DNA of 64,000 bases from Bacteroidales bacterium (GCA_015654535.1 JAATGU010000120.1:34515-98514), one strand, 5' to 3'; shown: positions 2,309 through 62,840, numbered from the stretch's first letter. Numbers and translations are program-made. Notes: generated from the sequence alone by a model not told the origin.

Positions 2309-2344
2309 AATATGTTGAATATTTTAATATTTTTTCAATGATCT

Positions 2345-3520
2345 CTACCAACCTGTTTGATCCCAGCCGGCAGCAGTATACCAGGAAAGTGTTTTATAAA
2401 AAGAGTTATTTTTAGTTTTTCCTTGTTGAGGGATGTATGTACCTAGTCCACAAAAAACATTGATAGGAATAACATCTTCAGCACCATTAACCACAGAGGT
2501 CAAGTTTGGCGTTTGTAACTTATATATCACAGCATTATTCAATGCAGTACCAAAAGCAATATCAGTATTAGCGGATATAGAATCCATAAACTGCTTTAAG
2601 TCATAAAAATCATGTTGCCCGGTAATATCGCTCGGAGATCCATTGCTATCAAAATATTGAAATCCAGAAGGAGAAAAAGAATTGACTTTTATAATGTTTT
2701 TTCCTATAATGAGCTTCACTTGTGCGGCAAGAGCATCCATTTGATCTAATTTGATGATAGAAACAAGAGCTGATCTACTATCACGACTTTGGCTGTCATA
2801 ATAATTATAATACAAATCTGCAATCTTTTTTAAATTATCTTCCCCTGATTTAAATAAATAAGGAGTTACTTCTTTATATGGAAATCCTGCGGCCATCACT
2901 TCACCCGTTGATGCAATCAAATAGTCAGAAATATCCCGAAACTCATACGCAGGCTCAGCACAGCCCATGAAACAGGCATCAAATAACATAAAATCAAAAT
3001 GATAGTTTGTAGATTTCAATGCGTCAGCCATATCAGTTATATCCATTTGATAGTTACTATCCCAGCCAAAAGATTTTGATTTAACTTTCTTCGTTGCCGG
3101 AAGCCACCCAGTGGCATGAGAGGAAAAAATAGCTCCATATTGTTTAGCTGGACGCAAAGTAAAAGCATCCGAAAAAACTTGAGCCATAACTGTTTTATCT
3201 GTCGATATCTGATCAGGATATGTTTTGATTACTATTTTATCAACAGTACCAATACTATTTTTCACTAGTTCATATAGCAACGGATATCCACCTCTATCAT
3301 AATAGATAAGAAAATGAGTATTACTATCTTGTACCGAAGCATATCCTATTACCATATCGGCTACATTCTTATCCAAATCTTCCGTCAGACCAGTACTTGA
3401 ATCACCCATTACATAAGCCAGTACCGTGCGGTTGACTGTTATAGGCGCAGCGGGTTCATCATCATGCTGACAAGAAGATAGCGCAAATAAAATGAGTAAT
3501 AGTGAAAAGAGCTTTTTCAT
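2345..3520 (-). CDS. Clostripain-family (C11) cysteine peptidase lipoprotein
   Basis: Lipobox LSSC followed by acidic QHDDE. Catalytic His context FSSHATGW and catalytic Cys context LFDACFMG. Confidence 0.9.
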   Translation of the reverse strand: MKKLFSLLLILFALSSCQHDDEPAAPITVNRTVLAYVMGDSSTGLTEDLDKNVADMVIGYASVQDSNTHFLIYYDRGGYPLLYELVKNSIGTVDKIVIKTYPDQISTDKTVMAQVFSDAFTLRPAKQYGAIFSSHATGWLPATKKVKSKSFGWDSNYQMDITDMADALKSTNYHFDFMLFDACFMGCAEPAYEFRDISDYLIASTGEVMAAGFPYKEVTPYLFKSGEDNLKKIADLYYNYYDSQSRDSRSALVSIIKLDQMDALAAQVKLIIGKNIIKVNSFSPSGFQYFDSNGSPSDITGQHDFYDLKQFMDSISANTDIAFGTALNNAVIYKLQTPNLTSVVNGAEDVIPINVFCGLGTYIPQQGKTKNNSFYKTLSWYTAAGWDQTGW

Positions 3521-3549
3521 TGATCATTCAGAAGATTAAATTTCAGCTA

Positions 3550-3945
3550 TTACTGAGGTTTAGTAAATTGGAAATCTTTCTTCTCAATCGGTTGAAAAGA
3601 CGAGGATTTATTCTTCTTATACTTTGCAGATAGTTTTGAAAAATCTTTTGTTATACCGCTTTTACTATCAGAGAAATAGATCATACATGTACGATTTTCA
3701 AGACCTTTTCCTTCCAAATAGTTTTTAAGCTGATAGCTATAAGCCTCTCTTTTAGGGAGAAATCCTTCTTTAGTAAGTTGAGCACTATCCAGTACCTGGA
3801 TGTCTGTATAATAAACCACTGAATCTGTAAAGGAAGCAGAGATGCCAAATGCATAAACTGTTTTCTGGCTTTTCTTAAATAAAGAGAAAGATGAGAGCAC
3901 ACATAGCATCACCACCGCAGATAATAGGACTTTTACAAATTTCAT
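3550..3945 (-). CDS. Small basic secreted hypothetical protein
   Basis: ATG 3945 gives MKFVKVLLSAVVMLCVLSSFS, a signal peptide. The gene lies in tandem between the sigma factor and the C11 protease. Confidence 0.7.
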   Translation of the reverse strand: MKFVKVLLSAVVMLCVLSSFSLFKKSQKTVYAFGISASFTDSVVYYTDIQVLDSAQLTKEGFLPKREAYSYQLKNYLEGKGLENRTCMIYFSDSKSGITKDFSKLSAKYKKNKSSSFQPIEKKDFQFTKPQ

Positions 3946-4022
3946 AGACGCATATATTTTGATAATATTTTCGATACAAAGATAACGAAAAGCATAGAAT
4001 GCCAAAGTAAAATGAAAGAAAA

Positions 4023-4058
4023 ATAAAGCCGATTCACTTTTTGATGAACCGGCTTTAT
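4023..4058 (-). terminator. Intrinsic terminator after the primary sigma factor gene
   Basis: Near-perfect inverted repeat taaagccgattca...tgaaccggcttta with an A-run on the + strand (U-tract on -). Confidence 0.7.
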
Positions 4059-4088
4059 ATACTATTTCTAAGAAATTGAATTTCCTAC

Positions 4089-4949
4089 TTATCCCAAATA
4101 GGACTTGAGTAATTTACTACGCGAATTTTGTCTTAATCTTCTTATTGCTTTTTCCTTAATCTGACGAACGCGCTCACGGGTGAGGCCAAATTTATCGCCG
4201 ATTTCTTCTAAAGTCATTTCTTGCTTTTCAATACCGAAGAACATTTGGATTATCTCCTTTTCTCTGTCGGTTAACGTAGAAAGAGCTCTATCAATTTCCT
4301 TTGCAAGAGATTCATTAACCAGGGCACGATCCGCCATTGGCGAATCATCATTGACTAACACATCTAAAAGGCTGTTATCTTCTCCCTCAACAAATGGGGC
4401 ATCTACTGAAATGTGTCTTCCCGACACTTTCAGTGTATCCGATATTTTGTCTACGGGGATATCTAATTCATCTGCCAGTTCTTCAGGCGAAGGTTTACGT
4501 TCGTTTTCTTGCTCAAATTTAGAGAAGGCTTTACTTATTTTATTCAGAGAGCCTACCTGATTAAGAGGAAGACGAACAATACGAGATTGCTCTGCCAAAG
4601 CTTGAAGGATCGATTGACGAATCCACCATACAGCATAACTGATAAATTTAAATCCACGTGTTTCGTCAAACTTCTCAGCTGCCTTTATCAGTCCCAGGTT
4701 GCCTTCATTTATTAAATCGGGCAAACTTAAGCCTTGGTTTTGATATTGTTTAGCTACAGATACAACGAAACGAAGATTTGCACGTGTCAGTTTTTCTAAT
4801 GCTACACGGTCTCCCTTACGAATGCGTTGGGCAAGTTCTACTTCTTCTTCAACAGTAATAAGGTCTTCACGACCGATTTCCTGTAGATACTTATCAAGAG
4901 AAGCACTTTCCCTGTTAGTGATACTTTTGGTAATCTTTAATTGTCTCAT
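4089..4949 (-). CDS. rpoD: Primary sigma-70 factor of the Bacteroidetes type (no region 1.1)
   Basis: [15 protein letters not shown] start. Region 2 motifs [33 protein letters not shown]. Region 4 motif TLEEIG...[16 protein letters not shown] -7 box at 4974-4981 (-). Confidence 0.95.
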
Positions 4950-5043
4950 GCTTATTAAACAGATTTGAGGGGACAAAGTTACAACAAAATATTCGTTTTA
5001 ACACTAATATAATTCTATTTTGTTTATATTAGTATCTATAAAC

Positions 5044-5106
5044 ATAGTAATACACAGACTTGTTCAAAATGGATCTTCCATTTGATACAAATCTGTGTAT
5101 TACTAT
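5044..5106 (-). terminator. Long hairpin between degP and rpoD (terminator or processing stem)
   Basis: atagtaatacacaga...tctgtgtattactat is a perfect 15-bp outer stem, with an inner aatgga/tccatt stem. Confidence 0.6.
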
Positions 5107-5126
5107 ATTTAAACCTCACTAGAATA

Positions 5127-6626
5127 TCAATCTTTGGTTGATAAATCTACTGCATAATTAACACGTTTGCCTGAAGGGAACATACCTGCCATAAACAAGA
5201 CTTGCTCTGGTGACTGAGTAGCTACTTTAAACAAAGTTTCAAAGTCAGCAACCGACTTAACCGGTTGTCCGTTAACTTTTAAAATGATTAAACCTTTGGT
5301 GATGCCCGCTTGTTGCATTTTACCAGAAGATACACCAGTAACCTGCAATCCATAAGACAGGTTCAATTGCTCTTTTAAATCTTTGGGTAGTTCTCTAAAG
5401 GCAGCTCCTAAAATTTCCATACCAGCATTCTTCACTACTTTGGTATTTCCTTGTGAATTCTTCAAGGTCACATCCAATACCTTTTCTTTCTTGTCACGAA
5501 CCACCTTTACTTTGATTTTGCTTCCAGGAGTCTGACGAGCAATGGTTTCTTGTAATTCGGCCATCGACTTAATGGATTTTCCGTTAATTTCTATAATAAC
5601 GTCTTTAACCTTAAATCCGGCATCGGCGGCAGAACCTCCTTCTATCACTTCGTCCACATAAACGCCATCATTCACGCCTAAGTCTTTATCTTTGGATATC
5701 TCAGCGCTATTGTCACCTCCTTTAATACCCAACAAAGCACGCTGAACGGTTCCATATTGTTTGAGGTCGGCAATAATTTTAGTCATGATACTGGATGGAA
5801 TAGCAAAGCCATAACCTGCATAAGCTCCTGTAGGTGAATAAATAGCAGAGTTAATACCCACCAATTCACCTCGAGTATTGACTAACGCACCTCCACTGTT
5901 TCCTTTGTTAACTGCCGCATCGGTCTGAATAAAGGATTCCACTCCTCCACCTCCCATGCCGAGATTACGAGCTTTTGCACTGACAATACCTGCTGTAACC
6001 GTAGAAGATAAATTGAACGGGTTGCCCACGGCAAGTACCCATTCGCCGATTTTCAGTTCATCCGAATTACCGACCGGAAGAGTAGGGAAATCTTTTCCTT
6101 CTATCTTGATCAAAGCTAAGTCTGTAGGAGCATCCGCACCAATCAAGCGAGCCTTAAATTCGCGCTTATCATTCAGTGTAACTGTTATTTCGTCGCTATT
6201 ATCAATCACATGATTATTGGTCACAATGTATCCATCTTTTGAAATGATCACTCCAGACCCTACTCCTTCTTGTTTGGGTTGCTGAACTTGTCGCTGACCA
6301 CCACCACCACGATTGCCAAAAAAGTCACCAAAGAAATCAGAAAACGGGTCTTGAACATCTACCGTTGTAGTTTTCTCATTAATGGTAGATTTGATATGAA
6401 CCACTGCATGCACAGAATTCTCTGCTGCCATGGTAAAATCTACTGGAGCAGCGGCTGACAGGCTATAACTAGCACGCTGTACATTGGGATTTTGCGGGAA
6501 CAGATCCTCATATGTCTGAGCTGTTTTCTTTGGAGAAATAATTGAGTAAGTCGTAACTCCAGCCACTCCAGAACTTATTGCGATTACAAGCCCTAAACCT
6601 AAGAAGTTTTTTGTTGTCTGTTTCAT
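5127..6626 (-). CDS. degP: Do/DegQ (HtrA) family serine endoprotease with two PDZ domains
   Basis: Motifs VTNNHVI, DLALIKI, QTDAAVNKGNSGGAL and C-terminal PDZ repeats. Likely start ATG 6626 (MKQTTK). Confidence 0.93.
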   Translation of the reverse strand: MKQTTKNFLGLGLVIAISSGVAGVTTYSIISPKKTAQTYEDLFPQNPNVQRASYSLSAAAPVDFTMAAENSVHAVVHIKSTINEKTTTVDVQDPFSDFFGDFFGNRGGGGQRQVQQPKQEGVGSGVIISKDGYIVTNNHVIDNSDEITVTLNDKREFKARLIGADAPTDLALIKIEGKDFPTLPVGNSDELKIGEWVLAVGNPFNLSSTVTAGIVSAKARNLGMGGGGVESFIQTDAAVNKGNSGGALVNTRGELVGINSAIYSPTGAYAGYGFAIPSSIMTKIIADLKQYGTVQRALLGIKGGDNSAEISKDKDLGVNDGVYVDEVIEGGSAADAGFKVKDVIIEINGKSIKSMAELQETIARQTPGSKIKVKVVRDKKEKVLDVTLKNSQGNTKVVKNAGMEILGAAFRELPKDLKEQLNLSYGLQVTGVSSGKMQQAGITKGLIILKVNGQPVKSVADFETLFKVATQSPEQVLFMAGMFPSGKRVNYAVDLSTKD

Positions 6627-6912
6627 TTTATTTATTTCCTTTAATTTGTTAATATTATGTTTATCGCTTAACATTTGCGGTGCTAAAATAACAACAAAAA
6701 GTAGTTTGTTATTCATCTGATCCGTAATTTTTGCTATCTTTTAACACAGTAATTAACAGCTTAACAGCGATTAACGGCAAATGCTTATAAATTTACCTTC
6801 ATTAGATAAATAATTGCGTCCGGTAATTATAGAAGATCCATTCATAAATAAAAAGAATTGATGAATGCCTAGGCAATGTCTGGTGAATGGACAGAGGATA
6901 AAGGCTGATAAA

Positions 6913-8256
6913 TTAAAGAGGGGTTTGAAGATATTCTATGTCCATATTCCAACTCCATTGGTTAAAATAGAGATTACCTTTTCTCCACTCCACTTCCCCG
7001 CGCTGAAAATCCACCGTTTCGCTACGAATGTACTTCTTTGCCGGAAATAAAGGAAAAGAAAAATCATCATTTACAATCATACGATAAGAATCAATGCCAT
7101 TGGTAAAAAAGTATTTTTCATCTTCGTTCTGTGATGGGAAGAGACCAAAAGACTGATCAACAGGTACCCAACCGATACCTTCAAAATAAACCTGAGCCCA
7201 GTCGTGCATATTTTTCCCTCCGGGATGCATCATAAATCCACTTTGAAATTTTGCTGGAATGCCGCTACAGCGGGCAAGAGTGATAAAAAGTAAACTTACC
7301 TGTCCGCAATCACCATGTTTATTATCGAGCACATATTCGGGGATATTCTCTATCGTGGAATATTCACGAGCGGATGCCCAAGGAAACTGATTGATCCATT
7401 CGTAAATACGCTTTACCTTAAGATACGGATTTTGCTCATCACCTACCAACTGCCGAGCCAATGCTTTTATGCGAGGAGTGAAGCGAACTTGAGTCTCTCG
7501 TTCACGCGTGTATTCCTTATATATAGACGAGCTCTTTTGGTAAGGCAGAATATCTTGAGGAGTGAGATGATCCCACTCGGCACGGGAAGTATATTCATAT
7601 TCGGCTGAGAATACGGTGGGTTGACCCTTCACCTGTTTTTTTTCCATGTAGAGTGTGGAGTGTTTATACTTTGAAGGTGATAGCTGATAGCTGGATTCAC
7701 TGGTATGAAGCAACTTTACATTTGTCTGACGAGGCTGATCGGTTCGCGGAAAAGGTAACCAACAACGAATTATTTCTCCCGCGGGCACCGCATCGGGCTT
7801 CACCGTCAAGGTATACTTTATCCGCATGGACACAGGGAGCACTCTGTTTTGGTGTTGTTCCTTTACCGTCCGCACCACCAACGGAACATGCGTGGCATTA
7901 ATCTTTTCAGATCCGTCCACTACTACCCCATCCTTTGCCTTTTTAATGGCAGCCGCTTCTTTATTGATCCGAAAAAGATTGGGAGCGGCATTGTAAAAGT
8001 ATCGCTTCTGTCCGTCTATTAAAATACATTCCAGAGATTTTTCTTTTTCCCACTGCAATAGCTGATCTTCAGTAACATTCGGAATATAAGTACGAATATA
8101 GGAGGTTACTTGCTCTTTCGTCTTGGAAAAGTCCAGCCGGACACGATTCATTCTCTCTTGATCTATGCGCTTCTTAGGCACCGCTGAAACACAAACAGCT
8201 AACAATAAGAATCCACAAAAAATAATCCAGCATTTCTTTTTCATTCTTCTCCTCAT
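6913..8256 (-). CDS. Exported transglutaminase-like domain protein
   Basis: Signal peptide. Triad-like motifs HGDCG (Cys), MHDWAQVY (His) and WVPVD (Asp). Confidence 0.85.
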   Translation of the reverse strand: MRRRMKKKCWIIFCGFLLLAVCVSAVPKKRIDQERMNRVRLDFSKTKEQVTSYIRTYIPNVTEDQLLQWEKEKSLECILIDGQKRYFYNAAPNLFRINKEAAAIKKAKDGVVVDGSEKINATHVPLVVRTVKEQHQNRVLPVSMRIKYTLTVKPDAVPAGEIIRCWLPFPRTDQPRQTNVKLLHTSESSYQLSPSKYKHSTLYMEKKQVKGQPTVFSAEYEYTSRAEWDHLTPQDILPYQKSSSIYKEYTRERETQVRFTPRIKALARQLVGDEQNPYLKVKRIYEWINQFPWASAREYSTIENIPEYVLDNKHGDCGQVSLLFITLARCSGIPAKFQSGFMMHPGGKNMHDWAQVYFEGIGWVPVDQSFGLFPSQNEDEKYFFTNGIDSYRMIVNDDFSFPLFPAKKYIRSETVDFQRGEVEWRKGNLYFNQWSWNMDIEYLQTPL

Positions 8257-8271
8257 TTTATCCTAATAATG

Positions 8272-9423
8272 TTACAGCTTCTGTATTCCAATTCCCGGAA
8301 GATCATTAAGCGTAATCTTTCCTTTCACTACTTCCATGCCTTTGAAAAGATCGTTTGAGATAAGCAGATTACCATCCAGGTCCGCAAAATCCACTGCGGG
8401 AGAGAACTGAGCGGCAGCCGATACGGCGCAAGAAGTTTCTGTCATACATCCCACCATAATCCGCATACCAAGGGCTCTTCCTAAGGTGACCATTTTCCAA
8501 GCTTCCCGCATACCAGTACACTTCATTAGTTTGATGTTGATCCCTGTGAAGGCACCTTTTAACTTTGCCACATCACCTAACCGTTGGAGAGATTCATCAG
8601 CGAAGATAGGAAGAGGGCTCTGTTGAGTAACCCAGGCAATATCATCTAACTGAGTCTTTGACATAGGTTGTTCCACCATCACAATACCTTGTTCTTTTAA
8701 CCACAAAATCATATCCAGTGCCTGATATTTATCTTTCCAACCTTGATTGGCATCCACGGCAATGGGTAATTGGGTAACGGAACGGATAGCATTGATTATC
8801 TCTTTATCATTCTCACGTCCAAGCTTCACTTTTAGAATATTGAATTTACCAGCTACTTCCAGTGTTTTTTCTTTCACCACTTCTGCTGTGTCAATGCCAA
8901 TGGTAAAGGTGGTTGAAGGAGCTTTCTCTTTATCCAGTCCCCAAATTTTATACCAAGGAGCACCAAGCAACTTCCCTACCAAGTCGTGAAGCGCAATATC
9001 CACGGACGCTTTGGCAGCAGTATTTCCAGGCATCACACCATCCACATACGCCAAAATATCTTCTAATTGAAACGGATCGCTGAATTGTTCTATATTCACT
9101 TTCTTGAGGAAAGTCATCACAGAGTCTACTGATTCCCCCAAATAAGGAGGCATGGATGCCTCACCATATCCGGTTACTCCGTCATATTCAATCTCCACCT
9201 GTACATCGGGAGTGGTGGTTCGAGAATAGGAGGCAACGGTAAAAACATGTTTCAGTTTTAAATCATACGGACGAAAAGTTAGTTTCATTTTACCGGAATG
9301 AGTATGTTTGTTAATTGAAAATAACGAGCTTGATTCTTTTGCCAAAGTGGCGTTCAATGCCAATCCGGAGCCTATGGCTGCGAATGCTGCGGTTTTAAGG
9401 AATTGTCTTCTATCCTGACTCAT
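8272..9423 (-). CDS. ykfB: L-Ala-D/L-Glu dipeptide epimerase (enolase superfamily) with Tat-like signal
   Basis: N-terminal DRRQFLK. Motifs KVKLG, DANQGW, VEQP, DESL, INIKLMKCTG, GCMTET and DLDG. Confidence 0.92.
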   Translation of the reverse strand: MSQDRRQFLKTAAFAAIGSGLALNATLAKESSSLFSINKHTHSGKMKLTFRPYDLKLKHVFTVASYSRTTTPDVQVEIEYDGVTGYGEASMPPYLGESVDSVMTFLKKVNIEQFSDPFQLEDILAYVDGVMPGNTAAKASVDIALHDLVGKLLGAPWYKIWGLDKEKAPSTTFTIGIDTAEVVKEKTLEVAGKFNILKVKLGRENDKEIINAIRSVTQLPIAVDANQGWKDKYQALDMILWLKEQGIVMVEQPMSKTQLDDIAWVTQQSPLPIFADESLQRLGDVAKLKGAFTGINIKLMKCTGMREAWKMVTLGRALGMRIMVGCMTETSCAVSAAAQFSPAVDFADLDGNLLISNDLFKGMEVVKGKITLNDLPGIGIQKL

Positions 9424-9434
9424 ATTTTTGTTTA

Positions 9435-10631
9435 TTATTGAGGTTGGTAGTATGGATTCGTTTTTACGGTGCTGATATTGGTTGATCCCACATGACCCAA
9501 TATCCGGGTAGCACTCAGTAATCGATTCAGATTATATTCATCGAAATCCTTATCTTCAGGATTAAAACTACTGATATGAACATATCCCTGAGAATGGATA
9601 AACTTTTGATTGCCAAGATAAAGAGCCACATGAATCACCCGCTCTTTCTGTTCTGGCGTGGCTTTACTTCCAAAGAATAACAGATCGCCCTGTTTCAAAT
9701 GGGAAAACCCATCACTAAGTTCTACTCTCTCTCCTACCAATGCCTGTTGAGAAGCATCCCGTGGCAAGATGATTCCGTGAGCAAACATCACCGTTCGGAT
9801 AAATCCGCTACAGTCCATGCCTTTAGTGGACATTCCTCCCCAAAGGTAGGGAATGCCTAACAGTGTTTTACTTGTACGGATTAGGCCCTCAGCATTTTGA
9901 TCAAAAGCATTCACCCATTTACTTTCGGGTATTCCGGAAGACAATGGAAGATAAGCCTTGTGTCCGTCGGGATAAGAAACTTGGTAATAATTACCTTCCG
10001 TACCTTCCCATTTCAACATATTACCACTCACTACATCGGACACCGTCTGAGAGTCTTCATCGGGCTTTTCGTACGTAAATCCATAAGCAGCAGTCACCAT
10101 GATCTTATCCGCCGCATTCCATGAATTATATTCCGCTTTGGTCATAGGATAAATGCTCGAAGAGGCCACCCAGGCAATGTAATCATCGGGCGTCCGCACT
10201 CTGTACCATTCATCCTCCTGAAGAATTCTCACCGGAGTACCTAGCAAAGCTTGGGTCATCATTTCACTGGCAAAGCTTACTTTCCTGCGGAGATTAACTA
10301 CCGAAAGATTAACCACACCATATGTTTTTGTGCCCAACTGAGCATCGGGTAATAATCGTAGGCTATCTATTATCTTATAATGTTTACTTTTAAGAGCAAT
10401 GATGAGTTCATTTTTTGCCTGAGCAATACTGGTGACACCTATTAATGTAAGGGTTTTCCTTTTCTTCTTTATCTCAAGATCAAACACGGAGTTCCGCTTG
10501 TCCGGTGCATAAGTTTGCTCCACGTGTTCCACAATTTTCGTGATGCCCTTAGAGAGTTTTCCGGCAAATACTTGATGACAAGAGAGGAGACCTATAAATA
10601 AGGTAAAGAATAAAAGGGAACGCTTTTTCAT
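9435..10631 (-). CDS. ykfC: SH3b + NlpC/P60 gamma-D-glutamyl-diamino acid endopeptidase (dipeptidyl peptidase VI)
   Basis: Signal peptide, SH3b-like repeats, PYLWGG...MDCSGF, GDLLFF and HVALY. Adjacent to ykfB. Confidence 0.9.
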   Translation of the reverse strand: MKKRSLLFFTLFIGLLSCHQVFAGKLSKGITKIVEHVEQTYAPDKRNSVFDLEIKKKRKTLTLIGVTSIAQAKNELIIALKSKHYKIIDSLRLLPDAQLGTKTYGVVNLSVVNLRRKVSFASEMMTQALLGTPVRILQEDEWYRVRTPDDYIAWVASSSIYPMTKAEYNSWNAADKIMVTAAYGFTYEKPDEDSQTVSDVVSGNMLKWEGTEGNYYQVSYPDGHKAYLPLSSGIPESKWVNAFDQNAEGLIRTSKTLLGIPYLWGGMSTKGMDCSGFIRTVMFAHGIILPRDASQQALVGERVELSDGFSHLKQGDLLFFGSKATPEQKERVIHVALYLGNQKFIHSQGYVHISSFNPEDKDFDEYNLNRLLSATRILGHVGSTNISTVKTNPYYQPQ

Positions 10632-54343: not shown

Positions 54344-55120
54344 TTATTCCATTATTGCATTATTTGTATCCGAATTTACAATCCATTTTTTAAATTCAGC
54401 AGCTTTATTCCTGCTTACATAAATACGTTCCGGAACAGGTATATCCAAAGAAAGAAGTAAACGACTGTCAAACCAGACAGTAATATCTTCTACAGCCTCT
54501 TTAGCAATAATAAATTGTTTGTTCGCCCGAAAAAAAATAGCTGGATTTAGAGTTTGGAAAATATTATCCAATGTCTTATTGTAAGTATATATATGCCCGT
54601 CTTTGAGCATCACCTGAGTTCTGTCCATGCTTGTATAGAAGCAAGAAACCTCTTTTAATTTTACTGGAATAAGTTTATCATTTACCGAGATAAGTATTTT
54701 TTCAACATATTCAGCAGAAGATACAATCCGAGTCAATTGAGCAATATATTGAAGGGTTTCCTGATGTGTCAATTTGTGGAATTTATCCAAAGCCCGCCTA
54801 ACCTCATGTATATCTGTTGGTTTGAGCAAATAGTCGATGCTGTTAACCTTAAATGCATCAATGGCATATTCATCATATGCCGTTATAAAAATAATAGGGA
54901 CTTCTACTGTTGTACAGCTGAATATATTAAAGGCCGAACCATCGGATAAATGAATATCCATAAAAATTAAATCGGGTACAGGATTCGATTGAAGCCAGTC
55001 AATAGTCTGAGACACACTTTCTGTATTCCCCATTATGTTTATAGCAAGGTCTATTTCCATAAGGATGTCTCTCAAATTAATATAAGCAGCAGTTTCATCT
55101 TCTACAATCAATACTTTCAT
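54344..55120 (-). CDS. LytTR-family response regulator
   Basis: MKVLIVEDE, FMDIHLSDG, DYLLKP and FFRANKQFII. Confidence 0.92.
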   Translation of the reverse strand: MKVLIVEDETAAYINLRDILMEIDLAINIMGNTESVSQTIDWLQSNPVPDLIFMDIHLSDGSAFNIFSCTTVEVPIIFITAYDEYAIDAFKVNSIDYLLKPTDIHEVRRALDKFHKLTHQETLQYIAQLTRIVSSAEYVEKILISVNDKLIPVKLKEVSCFYTSMDRTQVMLKDGHIYTYNKTLDNIFQTLNPAIFFRANKQFIIAKEAVEDITVWFDSRLLLSLDIPVPERIYVSRNKAAEFKKWIVNSDTNNAIME

Positions 55121-56148
55121 ACAGTTTCTTCTATTAAAGGCAAATAAACACAAAATACACCATTTTCTTTTTCAATCCTTATTTGTTTGTTTTGTAACAA
55201 TGCAAAGCGACTGGCCAAATTTGTAAGGCCGACACCTGTTTTAGTAATAACATACGTTTTCTCTCGAATTGGATTTGACACAACAAGTTCGAACCCTTCA
55301 TTTAAGGATACAGAGACGACCATGAAGTGTTCACTGTCAATCACATTATGTTTTATTACATTTTCTATTAATGGAAGAAGCGAAAGGACTGGAATTTTCA
55401 AATGACGTTCTTTCTCATCTATCGTAATCTGAAATGAAATCTTATTCGCATAACGAACTTCTATCAAATAGCGATAAGCATCCAAAAACTGAAGTTCATC
55501 ATTCAGCGTTACTAAACCCTTTTTTTCACTTTGCAGAATATAACGAAATACGCCCGACAGTTTATTGATATACTCTAGTGTGCGCTCCTTCTGATTACAA
55601 CGTACCAGCGCAGTTAAACTATTAAGTGAATTAAAAAAGAAATGAGGATTTATTTGATTTGACAATGCCTCATAACGACTTTGCAAAGTTTCCATTTTCA
55701 GTTGCTCATTCTCTTGTTCTATTTTTAACTGGCGTAATGAAAGTATATAAATGTGCCCTGCCAGTGTACTGATAATCCAAGCTATCACAAACTGCAATAC
55801 CAACATTCCACTGAAACAGTCCATAAATCGGTTGATGGCGTAAGCAATTCCTCCGTAAAATGCATAAGCTAATACAGAAAGGAAAAAGGTTTTTTGCAAG
55901 CGATCCGGCAAGCTGTTATTAGAGAGATAATAAATATTAACTGTAAGCAGCCCCCACGAAACAAACCAAAAAAACAAAAAGCGATAAACAAAATATCCTA
56001 TTAACAAAGGCACACATGTGGATGGTTCTGCACAATTCAATAAATCATGAATCAAACAACTTATATTAGGATAAATAATAATCGCCCCTAGAATTAATCC
56101 TCCGAAGAAAACTACTTTGCGAGGGGTTAGTGAATCAGTCAGTTTCAT
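55117..56148 (-). CDS. LytS/YehU-type membrane sensor kinase
   Basis: Four predicted transmembrane segments, QINPHFFFNSLN, ENVIKHN and GVGL. ATGA overlap with the regulator. Confidence 0.9.
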   Translation of the reverse strand: MKLTDSLTPRKVVFFGGLILGAIIIYPNISCLIHDLLNCAEPSTCVPLLIGYFVYRFLFFWFVSWGLLTVNIYYLSNNSLPDRLQKTFFLSVLAYAFYGGIAYAINRFMDCFSGMLVLQFVIAWIISTLAGHIYILSLRQLKIEQENEQLKMETLQSRYEALSNQINPHFFFNSLNSLTALVRCNQKERTLEYINKLSGVFRYILQSEKKGLVTLNDELQFLDAYRYLIEVRYANKISFQITIDEKERHLKIPVLSLLPLIENVIKHNVIDSEHFMVVSVSLNEGFELVVSNPIREKTYVITKTGVGLTNLASRFALLQNKQIRIEKENGVFCVYLPLIEETV

Positions 56149-56379
56149 AAGAATTACTTTTTTGCAAAGATAAGAGTTTGATTTGTATTTATTTGTATGA
56201 ACATAAAGCTTATCATTTCCTTATTTTTCGTCTTTACCTTGTTTTTTTTCGTTTTAACCGAATAAGCCCATAAATAAAAAATAAAATCACTATTATTGTA
56301 CTCAAAATAATGAAATACATGAAAGTGATAATATTCAAAAGAAGTTTGAATGAAAATTATTCATGTAAGAGCAAAAATT

Positions 56380-57501
56380 ATGGAAGCATCAAAAGTTTAT
56401 TTCACAAACCTACGGACGGACCCAACGAGTAATTTATTGGATAAAATGGAACGCTTAGTAAAAAAGGCGGGGATATCCACTATTGATTTTAGCAACCATT
56501 TTGCTGCGATAAAAATACATTTCGGTGAACCCGGAAATGTAGCTTATATCCGTCCAAATTACGCTGCACGTTTGGCCAATTTACTACGTTCTCTAGGAGC
56601 AAAACCTTTTCTTACGGATTCAAATACATTATATTCTGGCCGTCGGTCCAATGCGGTAGATCATTTACAAAGTGCAATGGAAAATGGATTTAACCCTATC
56701 TCTGCCCAATGTCAAGTAATCATTGCGGATGGATTAAAGGGGACCGAATATCGTGAAATCGAGATTAACGGGCAATATTGCAAGGCTCCTAAAATAGGAG
56801 CTGCCATTGCCGATGCAGATATCATCATTTCAATGAACCATTTTAAAGGACATGAGCAAACTGGATTTGGTGGGGCATTAAAAAACCTCGGTATGGGATG
56901 TGCCAGTGTAGGAGGAAAGATGGAATTGCATTCTGCTTCACAACCATCTATCAATAAAGAAAACTGTAAAAGTTGTGGCATCTGCGTAAAGCATTGTGCA
57001 CATGATGCAATCCATTTGAATGAAGCTCACAAAGCTGAAATTGATTATATCAAGTGTGTGGGATGTGGACAATGTATTGCCCTTTGTCAGTATAATGCTG
57101 CTGTCATCGGAGAAAATGATACGGCTGACCATGTAAGCTATAAAATAGCCGAATATACTAAGGCTGTAATAAAAGATAAACCCAATTTCCATATTAGCTT
57201 TATTATGAATGTGTCGCCTGAATGTGACTGCTGGAATCACAATGATGCAGCTATTGTTCCGGATTTGGGTATATTGGCTTCATTTGATCCTGTAGCGTTG
57301 GACAAAGCCTGTGCAGATATGGTAATCAATGCCCCAGTGGTGAGTGTTAATAACAAATTAACGCAAGATAATTCTAACGCACATCTGGAAGGCGTAGATA
57401 AATTCCATTTACTTCATCCAGACACAAATTGGCTGGCTGGATTAAAGTATGCCGAATTGATAGGAATAGGAACCATGAATTATGAATTAATCAATATCTG
57501 A
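56380..57501 (+). CDS. Cytoplasmic DUF362-domain protein with an inserted 2x[4Fe-4S] ferredoxin
   Basis: Motifs KIHFGE, HFKGH...GGALKNLGMGC, CKSCGIC...C, CVGCGQC...C, ECDC and DPVALD. Confidence 0.85.
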   Translation: MEASKVYFTNLRTDPTSNLLDKMERLVKKAGISTIDFSNHFAAIKIHFGEPGNVAYIRPNYAARLANLLRSLGAKPFLTDSNTLYSGRRSNAVDHLQSAMENGFNPISAQCQVIIADGLKGTEYREIEINGQYCKAPKIGAAIADADIIISMNHFKGHEQTGFGGALKNLGMGCASVGGKMELHSASQPSINKENCKSCGICVKHCAHDAIHLNEAHKAEIDYIKCVGCGQCIALCQYNAAVIGENDTADHVSYKIAEYTKAVIKDKPNFHISFIMNVSPECDCWNHNDAAIVPDLGILASFDPVALDKACADMVINAPVVSVNNKLTQDNSNAHLEGVDKFHLLHPDTNWLAGLKYAELIGIGTMNYELINI

Positions 57502-57525: not shown

Positions 57526-58035
57526 ATGGAAAGAACAGTAAAACTTTATTCATTGGCATATAGTAATGTAAATACTTATTTATTTGCTTTACTATTTATT
57601 GCAGGAAACGTTGCATTACCTCAGTTGTGCCACTTAATCCCCGGAGGCGGTCCAATGCTGCTGCCGATCTATTTTTTCACCTTGATTGCCACTTACAAAT
57701 ACGGTCTACGAGTAGGACTACTGACTGCCATCCTTTCGCCATTAGTCAATAGTGCCCTGTTTGGCATGCCCACCGTTGCCGTCCTTCCCTCTATTCTTAT
57801 TAAATCAGGGCTACTGGCATTGATTGGTGCCTATATTGCCCATCGTACCGGAAAAGTTTCAATAGCAGCACTTTTTATCATCGTGTTAGCTTATCAACTC
57901 ATTGGTTGCGCGTATGAATGGATGGTTGTGAAAGATTTCTTTATTGCTGTACAAGATTTCCGCATTGGTATCCCTGGTATGTTTCTTCAAATATTTGGTG
58001 GATACGGAGTATTAAAAGCCATTGCTAAAATCTAA
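57526..58035 (+). CDS. ECF-transporter S-component-like membrane protein
   Basis: 169 aa, about 5-6 transmembrane segments, GPMLLPIYFFTL and PGMFLQ motifs as recalled for S components. Confidence 0.65.
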   Translation: MERTVKLYSLAYSNVNTYLFALLFIAGNVALPQLCHLIPGGGPMLLPIYFFTLIATYKYGLRVGLLTAILSPLVNSALFGMPTVAVLPSILIKSGLLALIGAYIAHRTGKVSIAALFIIVLAYQLIGCAYEWMVVKDFFIAVQDFRIGIPGMFLQIFGGYGVLKAIAKI

Positions 58036-58041
58036 ATAAAT

Positions 58042-58440
58042 ATGATAGAAAAGACATTTAACGAAATCATGGACCGGTTTCGTGAAATAACGTTTCAAGA
58101 AGATTTTGATATGATTGTTGCCATAGCTAACGGAGGAATAATTCCTGCGGCAATCCTTAATCAGCGATTGGGCGTAGGCATTCATTTGTTGAAAATAAAT
58201 TTTCGTGATGCCAATCAAAAACCTAGTTATGCTCAACCGCATTTATTGGCTCCCATTGATTTTGAATTTAAAGGCAAAACAATTCTTTTGGTGGAAGACC
58301 GGATTAAAACAGGTGCAACCATTGATTTTGCCTACGATTTGTTACAAGGAGCAAAGTTGATAAAAACATTCGCTGTAAACGGCAATGCTAATTACGCTTT
58401 GTATAATGAAGCATGTTTTAAATTTCCTTGGATCATTTAA
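58042..58440 (+). CDS. Type I phosphoribosyltransferase
   Basis: PPi loop VAIANGG and PRPP-binding loop ILLVEDRIKTGAT. Confidence 0.85.
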   Translation: MIEKTFNEIMDRFREITFQEDFDMIVAIANGGIIPAAILNQRLGVGIHLLKINFRDANQKPSYAQPHLLAPIDFEFKGKTILLVEDRIKTGATIDFAYDLLQGAKLIKTFAVNGNANYALYNEACFKFPWII

Positions 58441-58449
58441 GTGGATTGC

Positions 58450-60324
58450 ATGAAAAAGATAGCAATTTGTATTGTTTCTCTTATGTTGCAATCCATTCAG
58501 GCGGCAAATGTTTCTCCTATGACAATTGTAAAAGATTCTATTCAATTAGATGAAATTATAGTCACAGGTTCCAAACCGGAAGTTAACTTACGCAACCTAC
58601 CGATGAGTGTTTCTGTAATAAGCGGCAAACAAATAGAGAGCCGGTTTGAGCCCTCACTCCTACCTATTATAATGGAAGAGGTTCCGGGGCTGTTCGTTAC
58701 AGGACGAGGCATTATGGGCTATGGAGTCGGATCAGAGGCAGGCGGTGGAATAAGTATCCGTGGAATTGGCGGCAGCCCCACATCGGGAGTATTGGTACTG
58801 ATAGACGGGCATCCACAATATATGGGAATGATGGGACATCCGTTAGCCGATGCATATCAATCGATGATGACAGAACGGATAGAGGTGGTACGCGGTCCAG
58901 CTTCTATCCTTTATGGTTCAAACGCTATGGGAGGAGTCATTAATATCATTACAAAAAAACAATTACAAAATGGTATGAAAACGAATGCGCAGATTATGTA
59001 CGGTTCTTATAACACGCTCAGTACGGAATTTAATAATAGTGTATTGAAAGGAAAATTTAGCAGCTATGTATCCCTGAGCTACAACCGAACAGACGGTCAC
59101 CGAAAAGATATGGACTTCGATCAGTATAGCGGTTATATGAAGTTAGGCTATAACTTTACTTCCAACTGGAAAGCATATACTGATTTGAATCTAACAAACT
59201 TTTCCGCTTCCAATCCGGGAAGTATTACCACTCCAATTATTGACAACGATGCTGATATTACCCGCGGTATGACCTCCTTCTCACTAGAAAATAAATACGA
59301 ACGAACTTCTGGAGCTCTAAAATTCTTTTACAATTTTGGTTCTCATAAAATAAACGATGGATATAACCCGGGAGAAGAACCGCTGAACTATCGTTTTCAT
59401 TCCAAAGATTACATGTTCGGCGTTTCTCTCTATCAATCGTATAGTCTCTTTCAAGGAAATCAAACGACAGCAGGTGTGGACTATCAAGGTTTCGGAGGAC
59501 ATGCTTGGAATAAATATCCTGAACTGAAAACAGACATTGCAGATAAAAGTCTCAATGACATAGCCAGCTATCTGAATATTCAGCAAACATTAGCCGATCG
59601 AATAACTTTCAACTCGGGTATCCGTATCGATCATAACGAACAAAGTGGCACTGAATGGGTCCCGCAGCTTGGATTAAGTTATATCGCTTCCGATGTAACC
59701 GTACTGAAAGCCATTGTGAGCAAGGGGTTTCGTAATCCCACCATCCGTGAAATGTATATGTTTCCAATGCAAAACCCAGACTTGAAACCGGAACGGTTGA
59801 TGAATTACGAACTTTCAGCCTCCCAAAGATTACTTAAAAATGCACTTCGTTTAGATCTTAACCTTTATTATATTCATGGTGATAACAGCATTCAGACTAT
59901 TATGATAGATGGTGCGCCTAAAAATATAAATACTGGAAAAATAGAAAATTACGGACTAGAGTTTGTTACTAATTATCAAATTAATCCTTATCTGAATCTG
60001 TCGGCAAATTATAGTTTATTACACATGGAGTACAAGGTTATTGCAGCTCCTGAACATAAACTATATGCCAGTGTGGATTACTCCCGTGCCAAATGGAGTT
60101 TATCAACAGGTCTACAATGCATTTACCATCTTTATACTGCGGTTGGGAAACAGGAAACGACAGAGAACTTTACTCTCTGGAATATCAGAACTTCCTATCG
60201 CCCGATGAAAATGCTAGAGTTATTTCTAAAAGGTGAAAACCTGCTGGCTCAGAAATATGAGATAAATGCAGGTTATCCAATGCCTCAAGCAACTGTTTTT
60301 GGAGGCATTGACTTGCGATTTTAA
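58450..60324 (+). CDS. Small TonB-dependent receptor (BtuB/CirA-like)
   Basis: Signal peptide, TonB box LDEIIVTG, IEVVRGPASILYGSNAMGGVINIIT and C-terminal LRF. Confidence 0.92.
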   Translation: MKKIAICIVSLMLQSIQAANVSPMTIVKDSIQLDEIIVTGSKPEVNLRNLPMSVSVISGKQIESRFEPSLLPIIMEEVPGLFVTGRGIMGYGVGSEAGGGISIRGIGGSPTSGVLVLIDGHPQYMGMMGHPLADAYQSMMTERIEVVRGPASILYGSNAMGGVINIITKKQLQNGMKTNAQIMYGSYNTLSTEFNNSVLKGKFSSYVSLSYNRTDGHRKDMDFDQYSGYMKLGYNFTSNWKAYTDLNLTNFSASNPGSITTPIIDNDADITRGMTSFSLENKYERTSGALKFFYNFGSHKINDGYNPGEEPLNYRFHSKDYMFGVSLYQSYSLFQGNQTTAGVDYQGFGGHAWNKYPELKTDIADKSLNDIASYLNIQQTLADRITFNSGIRIDHNEQSGTEWVPQLGLSYIASDVTVLKAIVSKGFRNPTIREMYMFPMQNPDLKPERLMNYELSASQRLLKNALRLDLNLYYIHGDNSIQTIMIDGAPKNINTGKIENYGLEFVTNYQINPYLNLSANYSLLHMEYKVIAAPEHKLYASVDYSRAKWSLSTGLQCIYHLYTAVGKQETTENFTLWNIRTSYRPMKMLELFLKGENLLAQKYEINAGYPMPQATVFGGIDLRF

Positions 60325-60361
60325 AAAATATTTCATATTATTAAATGTAAATGAAAAGATT

Positions 60362-61300
60362 ATGGACAGACGAAATTTTTTAAAAGCTGTAGCTATTACA
60401 GGGGCAGCAATAACAATCAAGGAAAGCGGAGCCATGGATATATTGGCTCAGACCGTAAAAAATCCAAAAACAAAAAGAGCAGTAGACCTGGTAGCTGTTA
60501 TGGGCGGTGAACCTGATGTGATGTTCAGAAGAGGCATTGCTGAAATGGGAGGAATAAAAAGGTTTGTAAAACCTGGTTACAAGGTAACGGTGAAGCCCAA
60601 CATTGGTTGGGATAAAACGCCGGAAATGGCTGGAAACACAAATCCCAAACTAGTGGCTGAAATTGTTCGTGAATGTTTTTCGGCAGGAGCCAAAGAAGTG
60701 ATTGTTTTTGATCATACATGTGATGACTGGCATAAATGTTATAAAAACAGTGGCATTGAAGATGCTGCCAAAGCTGCCGGAGCAACAATAATGCCTGCAC
60801 ACGAAGAATCCTATTATCGTACTATTGCTATTCCCAGGGGAAAGAATCTGAAAAGTGCTAAAGTACACGAAGCTATTCTGGACTGTGATGTTTGGATTAA
60901 TGTGCCTATATTAAAAAATCACGGAGGAGCAAATCTTACCATGTCTATGAAGAATCATATGGGCATTGTATGGGATAGAGGAGCATTCCATAAAAACGAT
61001 TTGCAACAGTGCATTGCCGATATTACTACAATGCACAAAAAAGCGGTTCTTAATGTTGTAGACGCATATCGCGTTATGAAAACAAATGGACCACGAGGAA
61101 GATCTATCGCTGATGTAGCTACTCCAAAAGGACTCTTTATCTCACAAGATATTGTTGCCGTAGAAACTGCTGCCGCTACTTTTTTTAACCAGATAAGAAA
61201 GATGCCTCTTGAATCGGTTGGTCACCTGGCTAATGCGCAAGCTTTGCATGTAGGCACTATGGATCTGGAAAAACTAAATATTAAAAGGATAAAGATGTAA
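60362..61300 (+). CDS. Tat-exported DUF362-domain protein
   Basis: MDRRNFLK twin-arginine signal. Motifs KPNIGW, TNP and PILKNH...SMKNHMG. Confidence 0.85.
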   Translation: MDRRNFLKAVAITGAAITIKESGAMDILAQTVKNPKTKRAVDLVAVMGGEPDVMFRRGIAEMGGIKRFVKPGYKVTVKPNIGWDKTPEMAGNTNPKLVAEIVRECFSAGAKEVIVFDHTCDDWHKCYKNSGIEDAAKAAGATIMPAHEESYYRTIAIPRGKNLKSAKVHEAILDCDVWINVPILKNHGGANLTMSMKNHMGIVWDRGAFHKNDLQQCIADITTMHKKAVLNVVDAYRVMKTNGPRGRSIADVATPKGLFISQDIVAVETAAATFFNQIRKMPLESVGHLANAQALHVGTMDLEKLNIKRIKM

Positions 61301-61307
61301 ATTTATT

Positions 61308-62840
61308 ATGCTAAAAAAAATGCGTGTGGGTATCTCTGTAATATTATTTACACTGATAACTTTTTATTTTCTTGACTTTGCTGGGCTATTACCCAACTCT
61401 TTTCACTGGTTGGCACAAATCCAATTTGTACCGGCATTACTGTCATTGAGCGTTATCATACTTGCAATACTGGTGATACTAACATTGTTCTTCGGTCGAA
61501 TTTATTGTTCAACAATTTGTCCAATGGGCTTTTTTCAAGATATCATAAGTCGATTTTCCCGACATTTTGGCAAAAAGAAAAAGAAGTACAGTTATAGCCC
61601 GGCAAAGAATATCCTGCGTTGGTCGGTGACAGGTTTTGTTCTCATTACTTTTTTACTAGGATTTACTCTGTTTCTGAGTCTTCTTGATCCATACAGCGCT
61701 TATGGAAGGATGATTGCAAACGTATTCAAGCCTGTTTATATGTCAGGGAACAATCTACTAGAATCTATCTTTAGCCAATTTAATAATTATACCTTTTACC
61801 GAGTAGATGTACTGATCCGGAGTGTTCTTGCTTTCTGTGTGGGAATGGTAACCTTCTTAGCAATTGGCTTTCTGGCTTGGCAATATGGACGCACCTATTG
61901 TAATACAGTGTGCCCTGTAGGGACAGTTTTAGGCTTTATCAGCAAATATGCTTTCTTTAAGGTAAGAATTGACGCAACAAAATGCAATAAATGCGGTCTA
62001 TGTGCTACAAAATGTAAAGCGTCCTGCATTGATAGTAAAGAGCATAGCATTGATTACAGTCGTTGTGTAGACTGTTTCAATTGTCTGGATAGTTGCAAAC
62101 AAAAAGCCATCAGCTTTGCTCCCGCTTTGCAACAAAAAAGTACAGTTATAAAAGCTGAAGGAATATCCGATGCTTCCCAACGTCAGTTTCTCATAACTAC
62201 CTTTGCTATGGCTGTGATCATGCCAAAGACCTTTGCTCAAAACAAAATAGCTGCTTTTACCAGTCGTGGAAAAGAGTATAAACGAGAACATCCACTCAGC
62301 CCTCCCGGTTCAATAAGCGCAAAGCACTTGCTAAGTCATTGCACTGCGTGTCACCTTTGTGTCAGTAAATGTCCGTCACATATATTGAAACCCGCACTTA
62401 TAGAATACGGTTTGGGAGGGATTATGCAACCAGTGATGAATTATGAAAAAGGATTCTGCAACTTCGACTGCACCGTATGTGGGGATATTTGTCCCAACGG
62501 AGCTATTAAACCACTTACCATCCAAGAAAAACATCTCACGCAAGTGGGAAAAGTAGTTTTTATAAAAGATAATTGTATTGTACATACTGATGGAACCAGT
62601 TGTGGTGCATGCTCGGAACATTGTCCCACACAAGCCGTATCCATGGTTCCTTACAAAAACGGATTGACTATCCCTTCTGTTAATCCGGATATTTGTGTAG
62701 GTTGTGGCGGCTGTGAATATGTCTGTCCGGTACGCCCATACAGAGCCATTCATGTAGAAGGAAATGTTGTGCATAAGCAAGCACTGGCTTTTAAAGAAAC
62801 GGAAAAGAAAACAATCAAAGTAGATGACTTCGGTTTTTAA
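61308..62840 (+). CDS. Membrane-bound polyferredoxin (NapH/MauN-like transmembrane part plus NapF-like cluster domain)
   Basis: GRIYCSTICPMG and GRTYCNTVCPVG, plus several CxxCxxCxxxC(P) motifs. Internal Tat-like SQRQFL segment. Confidence 0.85.
   Translation: MLKKMRVGISVILFTLITFYFLDFAGLLPNSFHWLAQIQFVPALLSLSVIILAILVILTLFFGRIYCSTICPMGFFQDIISRFSRHFGKKKKKYSYSPAKNILRWSVTGFVLITFLLGFTLFLSLLDPYSAYGRMIANVFKPVYMSGNNLLESIFSQFNNYTFYRVDVLIRSVLAFCVGMVTFLAIGFLAWQYGRTYCNTVCPVGTVLGFISKYAFFKVRIDATKCNKCGLCATKCKASCIDSKEHSIDYSRCVDCFNCLDSCKQKAISFAPALQQKSTVIKAEGISDASQRQFLITTFAMAVIMPKTFAQNKIAAFTSRGKEYKREHPLSPPGSISAKHLLSHCTACHLCVSKCPSHILKPALIEYGLGGIMQPVMNYEKGFCNFDCTVCGDICPNGAIKPLTIQEKHLTQVGKVVFIKDNCIVHTDGTSCGACSEHCPTQAVSMVPYKNGLTIPSVNPDICVGCGGCEYVCPVRPYRAIHVEGNVVHKQALAFKETEKKTIKVDDFGF

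Follow-up and report, generated by a model that had tools for sequence, protein, structure and literature searches.

The stretch of DNA analysed here (the window) comprises 64,000 nucleotides of a Bacteroidales bacterium (GCA_015654535.1 JAATGU010000120.1:34515-98514) and carries on its forward strand a six-gene operon encoding two proteins of the DUF362 family. Both were shown to be divergent members of the LarA/DUF362 superfamily that keep a His-Lys-His triad at homologous positions. In lactate racemase LarA this triad supplies one catalytic base, the lysine tether and the nickel-ligating histidine of the nickel-pincer nucleotide (NPN). An NPN reading of the two DUF362 proteins was partly supported, and is weighed below against its alternatives.

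DUF362 genes and their His-Lys-His motif

The first gene (Fdx-type) lies at 56380..57501 (+) and encodes a cytoplasmic protein with a nested 2x[4Fe-4S] ferredoxin (Fdx) insert. Its listed open reading frame (ORF) is 56350-57501 (383 aa); M11, at 56380, is probably the true start because homologues are 373-380 aa long, and gives a product of 373 aa. The second gene (TAT-type), at 60362..61300 (+), encodes a protein of 312 aa from MDRRNFLK (homologues, 311-312 aa) with a twin-arginine translocation (TAT or Tat) signal, and belongs to a group referred to below as clade II. PF04015 matched both over profile positions 1/2-200 against a cut-off of 24 (Pfam scan), with 182.1 bits (1.7e-53) for the Fdx-type protein and 165.9 bits (1.6e-48) for the TAT-type ORF 60266-61300. 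The two proteins are homologous along their full length (hhalign probability 95%, E=4.7e-8), and a profile search of the complete genome returned just these two DUF362 genes, both in this operon. Near relatives of each number in the thousands in metagenomes.

A LarA-like spacing of His, Lys and His had been noted in both proteins by the first-pass annotation and was confirmed by translation of 56851-56931 and 60920-60952. In the Fdx-type protein the motif reads H168-x9-K178-x15-H194 (383-aa numbering; 56851..56931, +; translation HEQTGFGGALKNLGMGCASVGGKMELH), equivalent to LarA H174/K184/H200; the step from His to Lys is +10 and that from Lys to the second His is +16. The ferredoxin domain (56941..57105, +; aa 198-252; Fer4, Fer4_7 and Fer4_21 matches and PDB ferredoxin matches) begins four residues past H194, and its eight cysteines are invariant or nearly so. 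In the TAT-type protein, H187-x9-K197-x12-H210 (60920..60991, +) opens with HGGANLTMSMK (60920-60952, +), the next conserved His standing at +13 from the Lys (KNHMGIVWDRGAFH). This triad aligned with H158/K168/H184 of the Fdx-type protein. The LarA motif given in the annotation is genuine: LarA of T. thermosaccharolyticum (PDB) reads IEPHFFAGFSGGRKSILPGIASVQCILANH, with Lys at +10 from His and His at +16 from that Lys.

Spacing of this kind could be matched by chance, with no common ancestry or function behind it. The exact pattern H-x9-K-x15-H occurs twice in window ORFs of at least 150 aa, 0.5 occurrences being expected by shuffling, and the second occurrence, in an unrelated LytS-type histidine kinase (55117-56148, -), is a chance match. 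Motif spacing by itself is no better than chance and is weak evidence; the match is meaningful because of homology and conservation.

Conservation was scored separately for each subfamily. Conservation at each of H168, K178 and H194 is 97-98% in 100 full-length Fdx-type proteins (35-55% identity), in which K55, D90, R99, D127, G128, H164, K190, C292-D293-C294 and D313 are also at least 90% conserved. The three TAT-type residues are invariant in 31 sequences, with or without lar genes in the genome, and C120, C217, D205 and R206 are conserved in addition.

Relationship to the LarA fold

Kinship between LarA and DUF362 is already published. DUF362 and DUF2088/Lar_N are placed in one Pfam clan, CL0471 (PMC11770544, PMC7955657), and DUF362 forms the outgroup of LarA-field trees (PMC11770544), the sole role found for it in the LarA papers searched. 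The NPN-binding and catalytic residues of LarA are K184 (tether), H200 (Ni ligand), R75 (phosphate) and H108/H174 (catalytic) (PMC11770544). No DUF362 structure appears to have been solved so far.

The Pfam scan gave a Lar_N (PF09861) match on the Fdx-type protein of 15.2 bits (E=0.012), below the gathering threshold of 23.3, that spans aa 149-197, corresponds to profile positions 147-195 without a gap and lies exactly over the motif. The protein is not a member of the Lar_N family proper, its score in a genome-wide search (16.2 bits) being also under 23.3. Comparison of 69 Fdx-type proteins with six LarA homologues by hhalign gave E=1.9e-4 and set the Fdx-type H/K/H on H170/K180/H196 of a LarA homologue, the counterparts of LarA H174/K184/H200; the motifs align without gaps (LarA IEPH-FFAGFSGGR-K-SILPGIASVQCILAN-H; Fdx-type FKGH-EQTGFGGAL-K-NLGMGCASVGGKMEL-H). 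In profile alignment both K178/H194 and K197/H210 align with K180/H196 of the LarA homologue (K184/H200), and an equivalent of H174 is present in each protein (H168 in the Fdx-type, H187 in the TAT-type).

Sequence searches of both DUF362 proteins against the PDB returned ferredoxin domains only, or nothing, and ferredoxins swamped the result when the Fdx-type family profile was used. Structure prediction, which the first-pass annotation had put forward as a check, gave a LarA-like fold for the Fdx-type protein. Its AlphaFold2 model (predicted local distance difference test (pLDDT) 94, predicted template-modelling score (pTM) 0.91) was compared with the PDB by Foldseek, and the top nine non-ferredoxin matches (2yjg, 6c1w, 8ezf, 5huq, 4nar, 7s91, 6d6z, 9eia, 9q3j) were all of the LarA family, at probability 1.0, with template-modelling (TM) scores of 0.35-0.47, 11-13% identity and 280-333 aligned columns. 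That annotation had claimed a LarA fold and, with it, a pincer-like or novel nucleotide cofactor in keeping with the neighbouring PRTase gene: the fold is supported by the Foldseek, Lar_N and hhalign results, and the cofactor is plausible.

Chance resemblance was rejected as practically refuted by homology and conservation, and is exceedingly improbable. It leaves unaccounted for the Lar_N match on this very stretch, the common clan CL0471, the hhalign result (E=1.9e-4), the nine LarA-family Foldseek matches and the 97-100% conservation of the triad.

Compared with LarA, the DUF362 proteins belong to the same clan (CL0471), have the same predicted fold and conserve in place the catalytic His, the Lys tether and the Ni-ligating His; a sister clade is moreover linked genomically to larC/larE/larB. 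They differ in length (312-373 aa versus ~420 aa), in having no LarA_C Pfam domain and in their sub-threshold Lar_N score, and equivalents of H108 and R75 were not placed. Their Fe-S wiring is a nested ferredoxin in the Fdx-type and a partner polyferredoxin in the Tat-exported type; the window's host has no LarB, LarC or LarE, and racemase-type chemistry is not implied.

Operon partners

Between the two DUF362 genes lie three others. The first encodes a membrane protein of 169 aa (m169; 57526..58035, +) with a predicted energy-coupling factor (ECF) S-component fold, as in vitamin-type permeases. No Pfam or NCBIfam family matched it. Its AlphaFold2 model (pLDDT 87) matched RibU, 5edl, 4hzu_S, FolT and PanT over the full length at TM scores of 0.59-0.66, with weak E-values (6.5e-3 to 0.85; Foldseek), in agreement with the six-helix fold of S components. 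Solitary S components include BioY and BtuM.

The second encodes a type I phosphoribosyltransferase (PRTase)-like protein of 132 aa, small and purine/Gpt-like (58042..58440, +; Pribosyltran, 1.9e-13), whose phosphoribosyl pyrophosphate (PRPP) loop is intact (LLVEDRIKTGAT). Its nearest PDB entries are the small purine PRTases 1vdm and Gpt, and a PRTase-DUF362 fusion was called in one database protein (P0169). The third encodes a small TonB-dependent outer-membrane receptor of the BtuB/haem/siderophore type (58441..60324, +; Plug and TonB_dep_Rec_b-barrel) with sub-threshold NCBIfam matches to haemin, siderophore and B12 receptors.

Vitamin salvage in Bacteroidota combines a TonB receptor, a permease and a trapping enzyme, as in thiamine OMthi/PnuT/TPK or corrinoid BtuB. 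The window operon resembles such modules in joining an outer-membrane receptor, a small permease of predicted S-component fold and a nucleotide-forming enzyme, and in that operons of its type are confined to genomes without the biosynthetic genes; it differs in its candidate cargo, since uptake of NPN or of NPN precursors is not known to have been described.

Downstream of the TAT-type gene lies the gene for a membrane polyferredoxin of 510 aa (61308..62840, +). This protein begins with a NapH-like half, which has two Fer4_5 motifs, and continues into a multi-cluster domain of NapG/NapF type. NCBIfam scoring does not place it in NapH or NapG (NapH/MauN, 74 bits versus a cut-off of 213; NapG, 64 versus 269), although its domains are of their kind, and it has a sub-cut-off NapF match and Pfam matches to Fer4_5 and Fer4 families. 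An internal segment (~aa 285-305) between the NapH-like and NapG-like halves reads SQRQFLITTFAMAVIMPKTFAQ. The C-terminal Fe-S domain may face the periplasm, because this segment looks like a twin-arginine signal that has degenerated and been retained as a membrane segment. The quinol-linked ferredoxin pairs NapGH, MauMN and NosGH work with redox enzymes that are Tat-exported to the periplasm. Like them, the window pair sets a CxxxCP (Fer4_5) membrane protein and a multi-[4Fe-4S] domain beside a Tat-exported enzyme; unlike in them, fused NapH-like and NapG-like portions make up a single 510-aa chain, which scores far below the cut-offs, and the partner is a DUF362 protein rather than a molybdo-, copper- or tryptophan tryptophylquinone (TTQ) enzyme.

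In B. uniformis (L009-L012, positions 1-10508) the Fdx-type DUF362, 169-aa permease, Tat-DUF362 and polyferredoxin genes form a cluster without PRTase or TonB receptor, directly downstream of a thiG-thiC-thiH-thiF-thiE-thiD operon with one reverse-strand gene between. In the window, a LytTR response regulator (54344-55153, -) and the LytS-type kinase already mentioned lie upstream of the operon and are divergent from it.

Lar genes in the host genome and among relatives

The genome from which the window comes (4.13 Mb, 160 contigs, 100% complete) was searched with Lar profiles, for which control genomes gave the expected matches. LarC had no match in the complete genome. The best genome matches to LarB (45 bits versus a cut-off of 175) and LarE (31 bits versus 150) were PurE-like and PP-loop proteins, respectively, and Lar_N matched nothing beyond the weak match on the Fdx-type protein. 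The absence of larB, larC and larE, which the first-pass annotation had reported for the window, thus extends to the entire genome, and because of it the host cannot make classical NPN.

Co-occurrence was tested within Bacteroidota, in 121 genera of the same order (order sample) and in 401 genomes of the phylum (phylum sample); all counts are uncorrected for phylogeny. In the order sample DUF362 was found in 56 genomes and LarC in 19 (base rate 16%), with DUF362 present in 17/19 LarC-positive and 39/102 LarC-negative genomes. The corresponding counts in the phylum sample were 33/40 and 36/361.

In at least nine genera a DUF362 gene for a protein of ~310 aa lies 0.6-2.7 kb from larC. All eight loci fetched had the arrangement [polyferredoxin]<-[Tat-DUF362] divergent from [larC]-([larE])-[larB]-[WbqC-like], larB following the polyferredoxin gene on the same strand in one of them (L019). 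The polyferredoxin of these loci is an orthologue of the window gene at 61308-62840 and was directly downstream of Tat-DUF362 in 8/8 lar-linked loci, in 19/20 loci from LarC-negative genomes and in 75/80 loci of the window's relatives; the 19/20 mark the two genes as a fixed unit. One more lar-adjacent Tat-DUF362 was found in another class (G290; phylum sample). Two further LarC-adjacent DUF362 matches (G327 and G339; 493-501 aa) were not counted: they cover the C-terminal half of the profile only and are probably LarA-like. A distant archaeal homologue of the Fdx-type protein (P0380) had no lar genes within 10 kb and is uninformative.

Other possible clients of NPN were looked for in the same genomes. 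That DUF362 is the sole possible client in LarC-positive genomes was rejected, since 17/19 also hold Lar_N-matching proteins of 410-460 aa. Nearly all LarC-positive Bacteroidales hold a divergent Lar_N-matching protein of 424-462 aa (E 1e-13 to 1e-5, profile ~50-194; for example G046:C59:4967-5407 and G040:C2:334862-335317) that is distinct from canonical LarA and may represent an uncharacterised subgroup of LarA homologues. Among the control genomes, Synechococcus elongatus and Haloferax volcanii had LarC and DUF362 matches and no Lar_N match at E<=0.001; the Haloferax larBCE genes have no known client (PMC8305020).

A WbqC-like protein (PF08889, ~215-226 aa) is encoded after larB in 6/8 lar loci (L017:10840-11520, with orthologues in L019-L024 and L035) and may be an unrecognised lar accessory or mere conserved synteny. 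At L035, which is LarC-negative, the WbqC-like and x514 flanking genes are kept beside the Tat-DUF362 module and the lar genes are gone.

The window's clade and the complementary distribution

From GTDB species genomes, the 80 proteins most closely related to the Tat-DUF362 of the window were taken and their gene neighbourhoods examined. Lar genes were found within 10 kb in 0/80 loci. Besides the polyferredoxin (75/80), the neighbours were the 169-aa membrane protein (52/80), the mini-PRTase (44/80), the TonB receptor, in the same position as in the window (18/80), and the Fdx-type DUF362 (10/80). A maximum-likelihood tree of Tat-DUF362 proteins resolved two clades with 100/100 support: clade I, with all 8 lar-linked rows and 12 rows from LarC-negative genomes, and clade II, with all 54 permease/PRTase-linked rows, the window included. 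Members of the two are 50-57% identical, have the same polyferredoxin partner and hold the triad and most other invariant residues in common.

The permease occurs in 9/121 genomes of the order sample, none of them LarC-positive, and LarC was found in 0/46 genomes with the permease/PRTase-linked module; at the base rate of 16%, the probability of 0/46 would be ~4e-4 were the genomes independent. Lar genes and uptake/PRTase genes are thereby distributed in complementary fashion, as if one cofactor were synthesised in some genomes and salvaged in others.

The same distribution could have arisen if NPN were used in the lar-linked clade I only, clade II and the Fdx-type having switched to a novel, non-nickel cofactor made by the PRTase from an imported base. 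The lar-linked and permease/PRTase-linked clades separate cleanly (100/100), the permease/PRTase module and LarC exclude each other, the PRTase has an intact PRPP loop and the K-to-H spacings differ (+13 in the TAT-type, +16 in the Fdx-type), all as such a switch would have it. The clades nevertheless share the triad, most invariant residues and the polyferredoxin partner at 50-57% identity, the PRTase is the only biosynthetic gene of the operon, and permease and PRTase are missing from a third of clade II loci, some of these being short contigs. A switch of cofactor is on balance unlikely.

Proposed function and its weighing

The best explanation of the data, offered tentatively and at somewhat less than even chances, is that the two DUF362 proteins are LarA-type redox enzymes whose cofactor is a pincer-like nucleotide taken up from outside. 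The triad site would be the pocket for a pincer-type pyridinium nucleotide, and NPN is the obvious candidate ligand because clade I is linked to lar genes. Redox rather than racemase function is inferred from the Fe-S wiring, the Tat export and the failure to find a second catalytic His. A Tat signal implies export of a folded, cofactor-loaded protein; the TAT-type enzyme would be loaded with its cofactor in the cytoplasm and exported, and in the periplasm it would pass electrons to or from the quinone pool with the NapH::NapG-like polyferredoxin as intermediary. The cytoplasmic Fdx-type enzyme would use its own 2x[4Fe-4S] wire just beyond the second His. An outside source is proposed because the genome has no LarB, LarC or LarE: NPN itself, one of its precursors or an analogue might enter through the TonB receptor and the S-component-like permease, and the mini-PRTase might convert an imported base to a nucleotide and so trap it, or might act on the nucleotide.

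Several results weigh against this proposal. The absence of LarB, LarC and LarE from a complete genome is the first, and other genomes present the same difficulty: LarC and the permease are both missing from 32/56 DUF362-positive genomes of the order sample, 12/20 clade I members are in LarC-negative genomes, and L035 looks like loss of the lar genes in place with the module kept. The DUF362 module therefore works without a visible NPN supply. Where LarC is present, DUF362 is not the sole candidate client, because most such genomes hold LarA-like proteins that account for the lar genes, and the co-occurrence counts carry no correction for shared ancestry. The Fdx-type gene was never adjacent to lar genes and was not enriched in LarC-positive genomes (4/15). 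The TAT-type profile compared directly with LarA was not significant (hhalign E=0.35), though in the same register, so that the link between them rests on the Fdx-type protein as intermediate. No equivalent of LarA R75 or H108 was placed, the global hhalign of the N-terminal halves being of low confidence outside the motif. R99 is invariant in the Fdx-type and K78 and R206 in the TAT-type, none of them alignable to R75 with confidence; no conserved His was found at the candidate strand ends ADGLxG (Fdx-type) and FD(H/N)TCD (TAT-type), in a region where alignment to that of H108 is unreliable. Uptake of NPN has, to our knowledge, never been described; salvage of the intact mononucleotide needs no PRTase, and import of the base only leaves the insertion of sulfur and nickel unexplained. 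With regard to a second catalytic histidine, LarA homologues with a single His exist (PMC12611868).

Much of this would follow if the proteins were LarA kin without a pincer-type cofactor, in which the ligand of the conserved His/Lys/His, and of further invariant Asp, Cys and Arg residues, is a substrate or a simple metal ion. The Fe-S clusters would then deliver electrons directly, and the receptor, permease and PRTase would import and trap a substrate or product of the pathway in place of a cofactor, for example a base that resembles a purine or a vitamin and has to be reduced. It agrees with the absence of lar genes from the window genome and from any of the 46 genomes with the same operon type, with the lack of a visible NPN source in most DUF362 genomes, and with a PRTase of purine-PRTase type, which suits base salvage; each subfamily also has conserved residues of its own (C292-D293-C294, H164 and R99 in the Fdx-type; C120, C217, D205 and R206 in the TAT-type), and no second catalytic His was found. 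It leaves unexplained why the sister-clade module stands head-to-head with, or inside, larC-larE-larB in at least nine genera despite rearrangements, why DUF362 and LarC co-occur so strongly, and why the Lys and His with which LarA holds NPN are precisely the invariant ones. A site without a pincer-type cofactor is a serious possibility, which we consider only slightly less likely than the uptake proposal.

Implications

DUF362 is a very large family to which no function has been assigned, and it is abundant in gut Bacteroidales. NPN is made by hundreds of prokaryotes that have no LarA, and only two non-LarA users were found, in 2025-2026 (PMC13524815). The known non-LarA pincer enzymes are an aldo-keto reductase (AKR; NphT) and an ornithine cyclodeaminase. 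The logic of their discovery, a His/Lys pair with larB/C/E adjacency and no LarA, fits clade I. Those enzymes are nevertheless cytoplasmic and built on NAD(P)-type scaffolds that have no relation to LarA, and their cofactor binding was demonstrated by experiment, whereas the DUF362 scaffold is LarA-related as judged from sequence and model, and the window's genome has no lar genes.

In its widest form, the proposal would make of DUF362 a second large group of enzymes with nickel-pincer or pincer-like cofactors, in which net redox chemistry is coupled to Fe-S clusters and which includes the first extracytoplasmic (Tat-exported) examples. Bacteroidales that have lost larBCE would scavenge the cofactor or its base from their community by way of the TonB receptor, S-component permease and mini-PRTase, and these uptake genes would represent the first salvage pathway for a nickel-pincer cofactor; taken as a whole this is improbable. 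If the triad instead serves a substrate or a simple metal ion, the analysis would still fix which residues form the DUF362 active site and define a conserved six-gene uptake-and-redox operon. If the pincer-type cofactor is real, nickel-pincer chemistry would widen beyond internal hydride shuttling to take in Fe-S-coupled redox reactions, and would reach the periplasm. The lar-less operon of the window would then suggest that anaerobic communities cross-feed a nickel cofactor.

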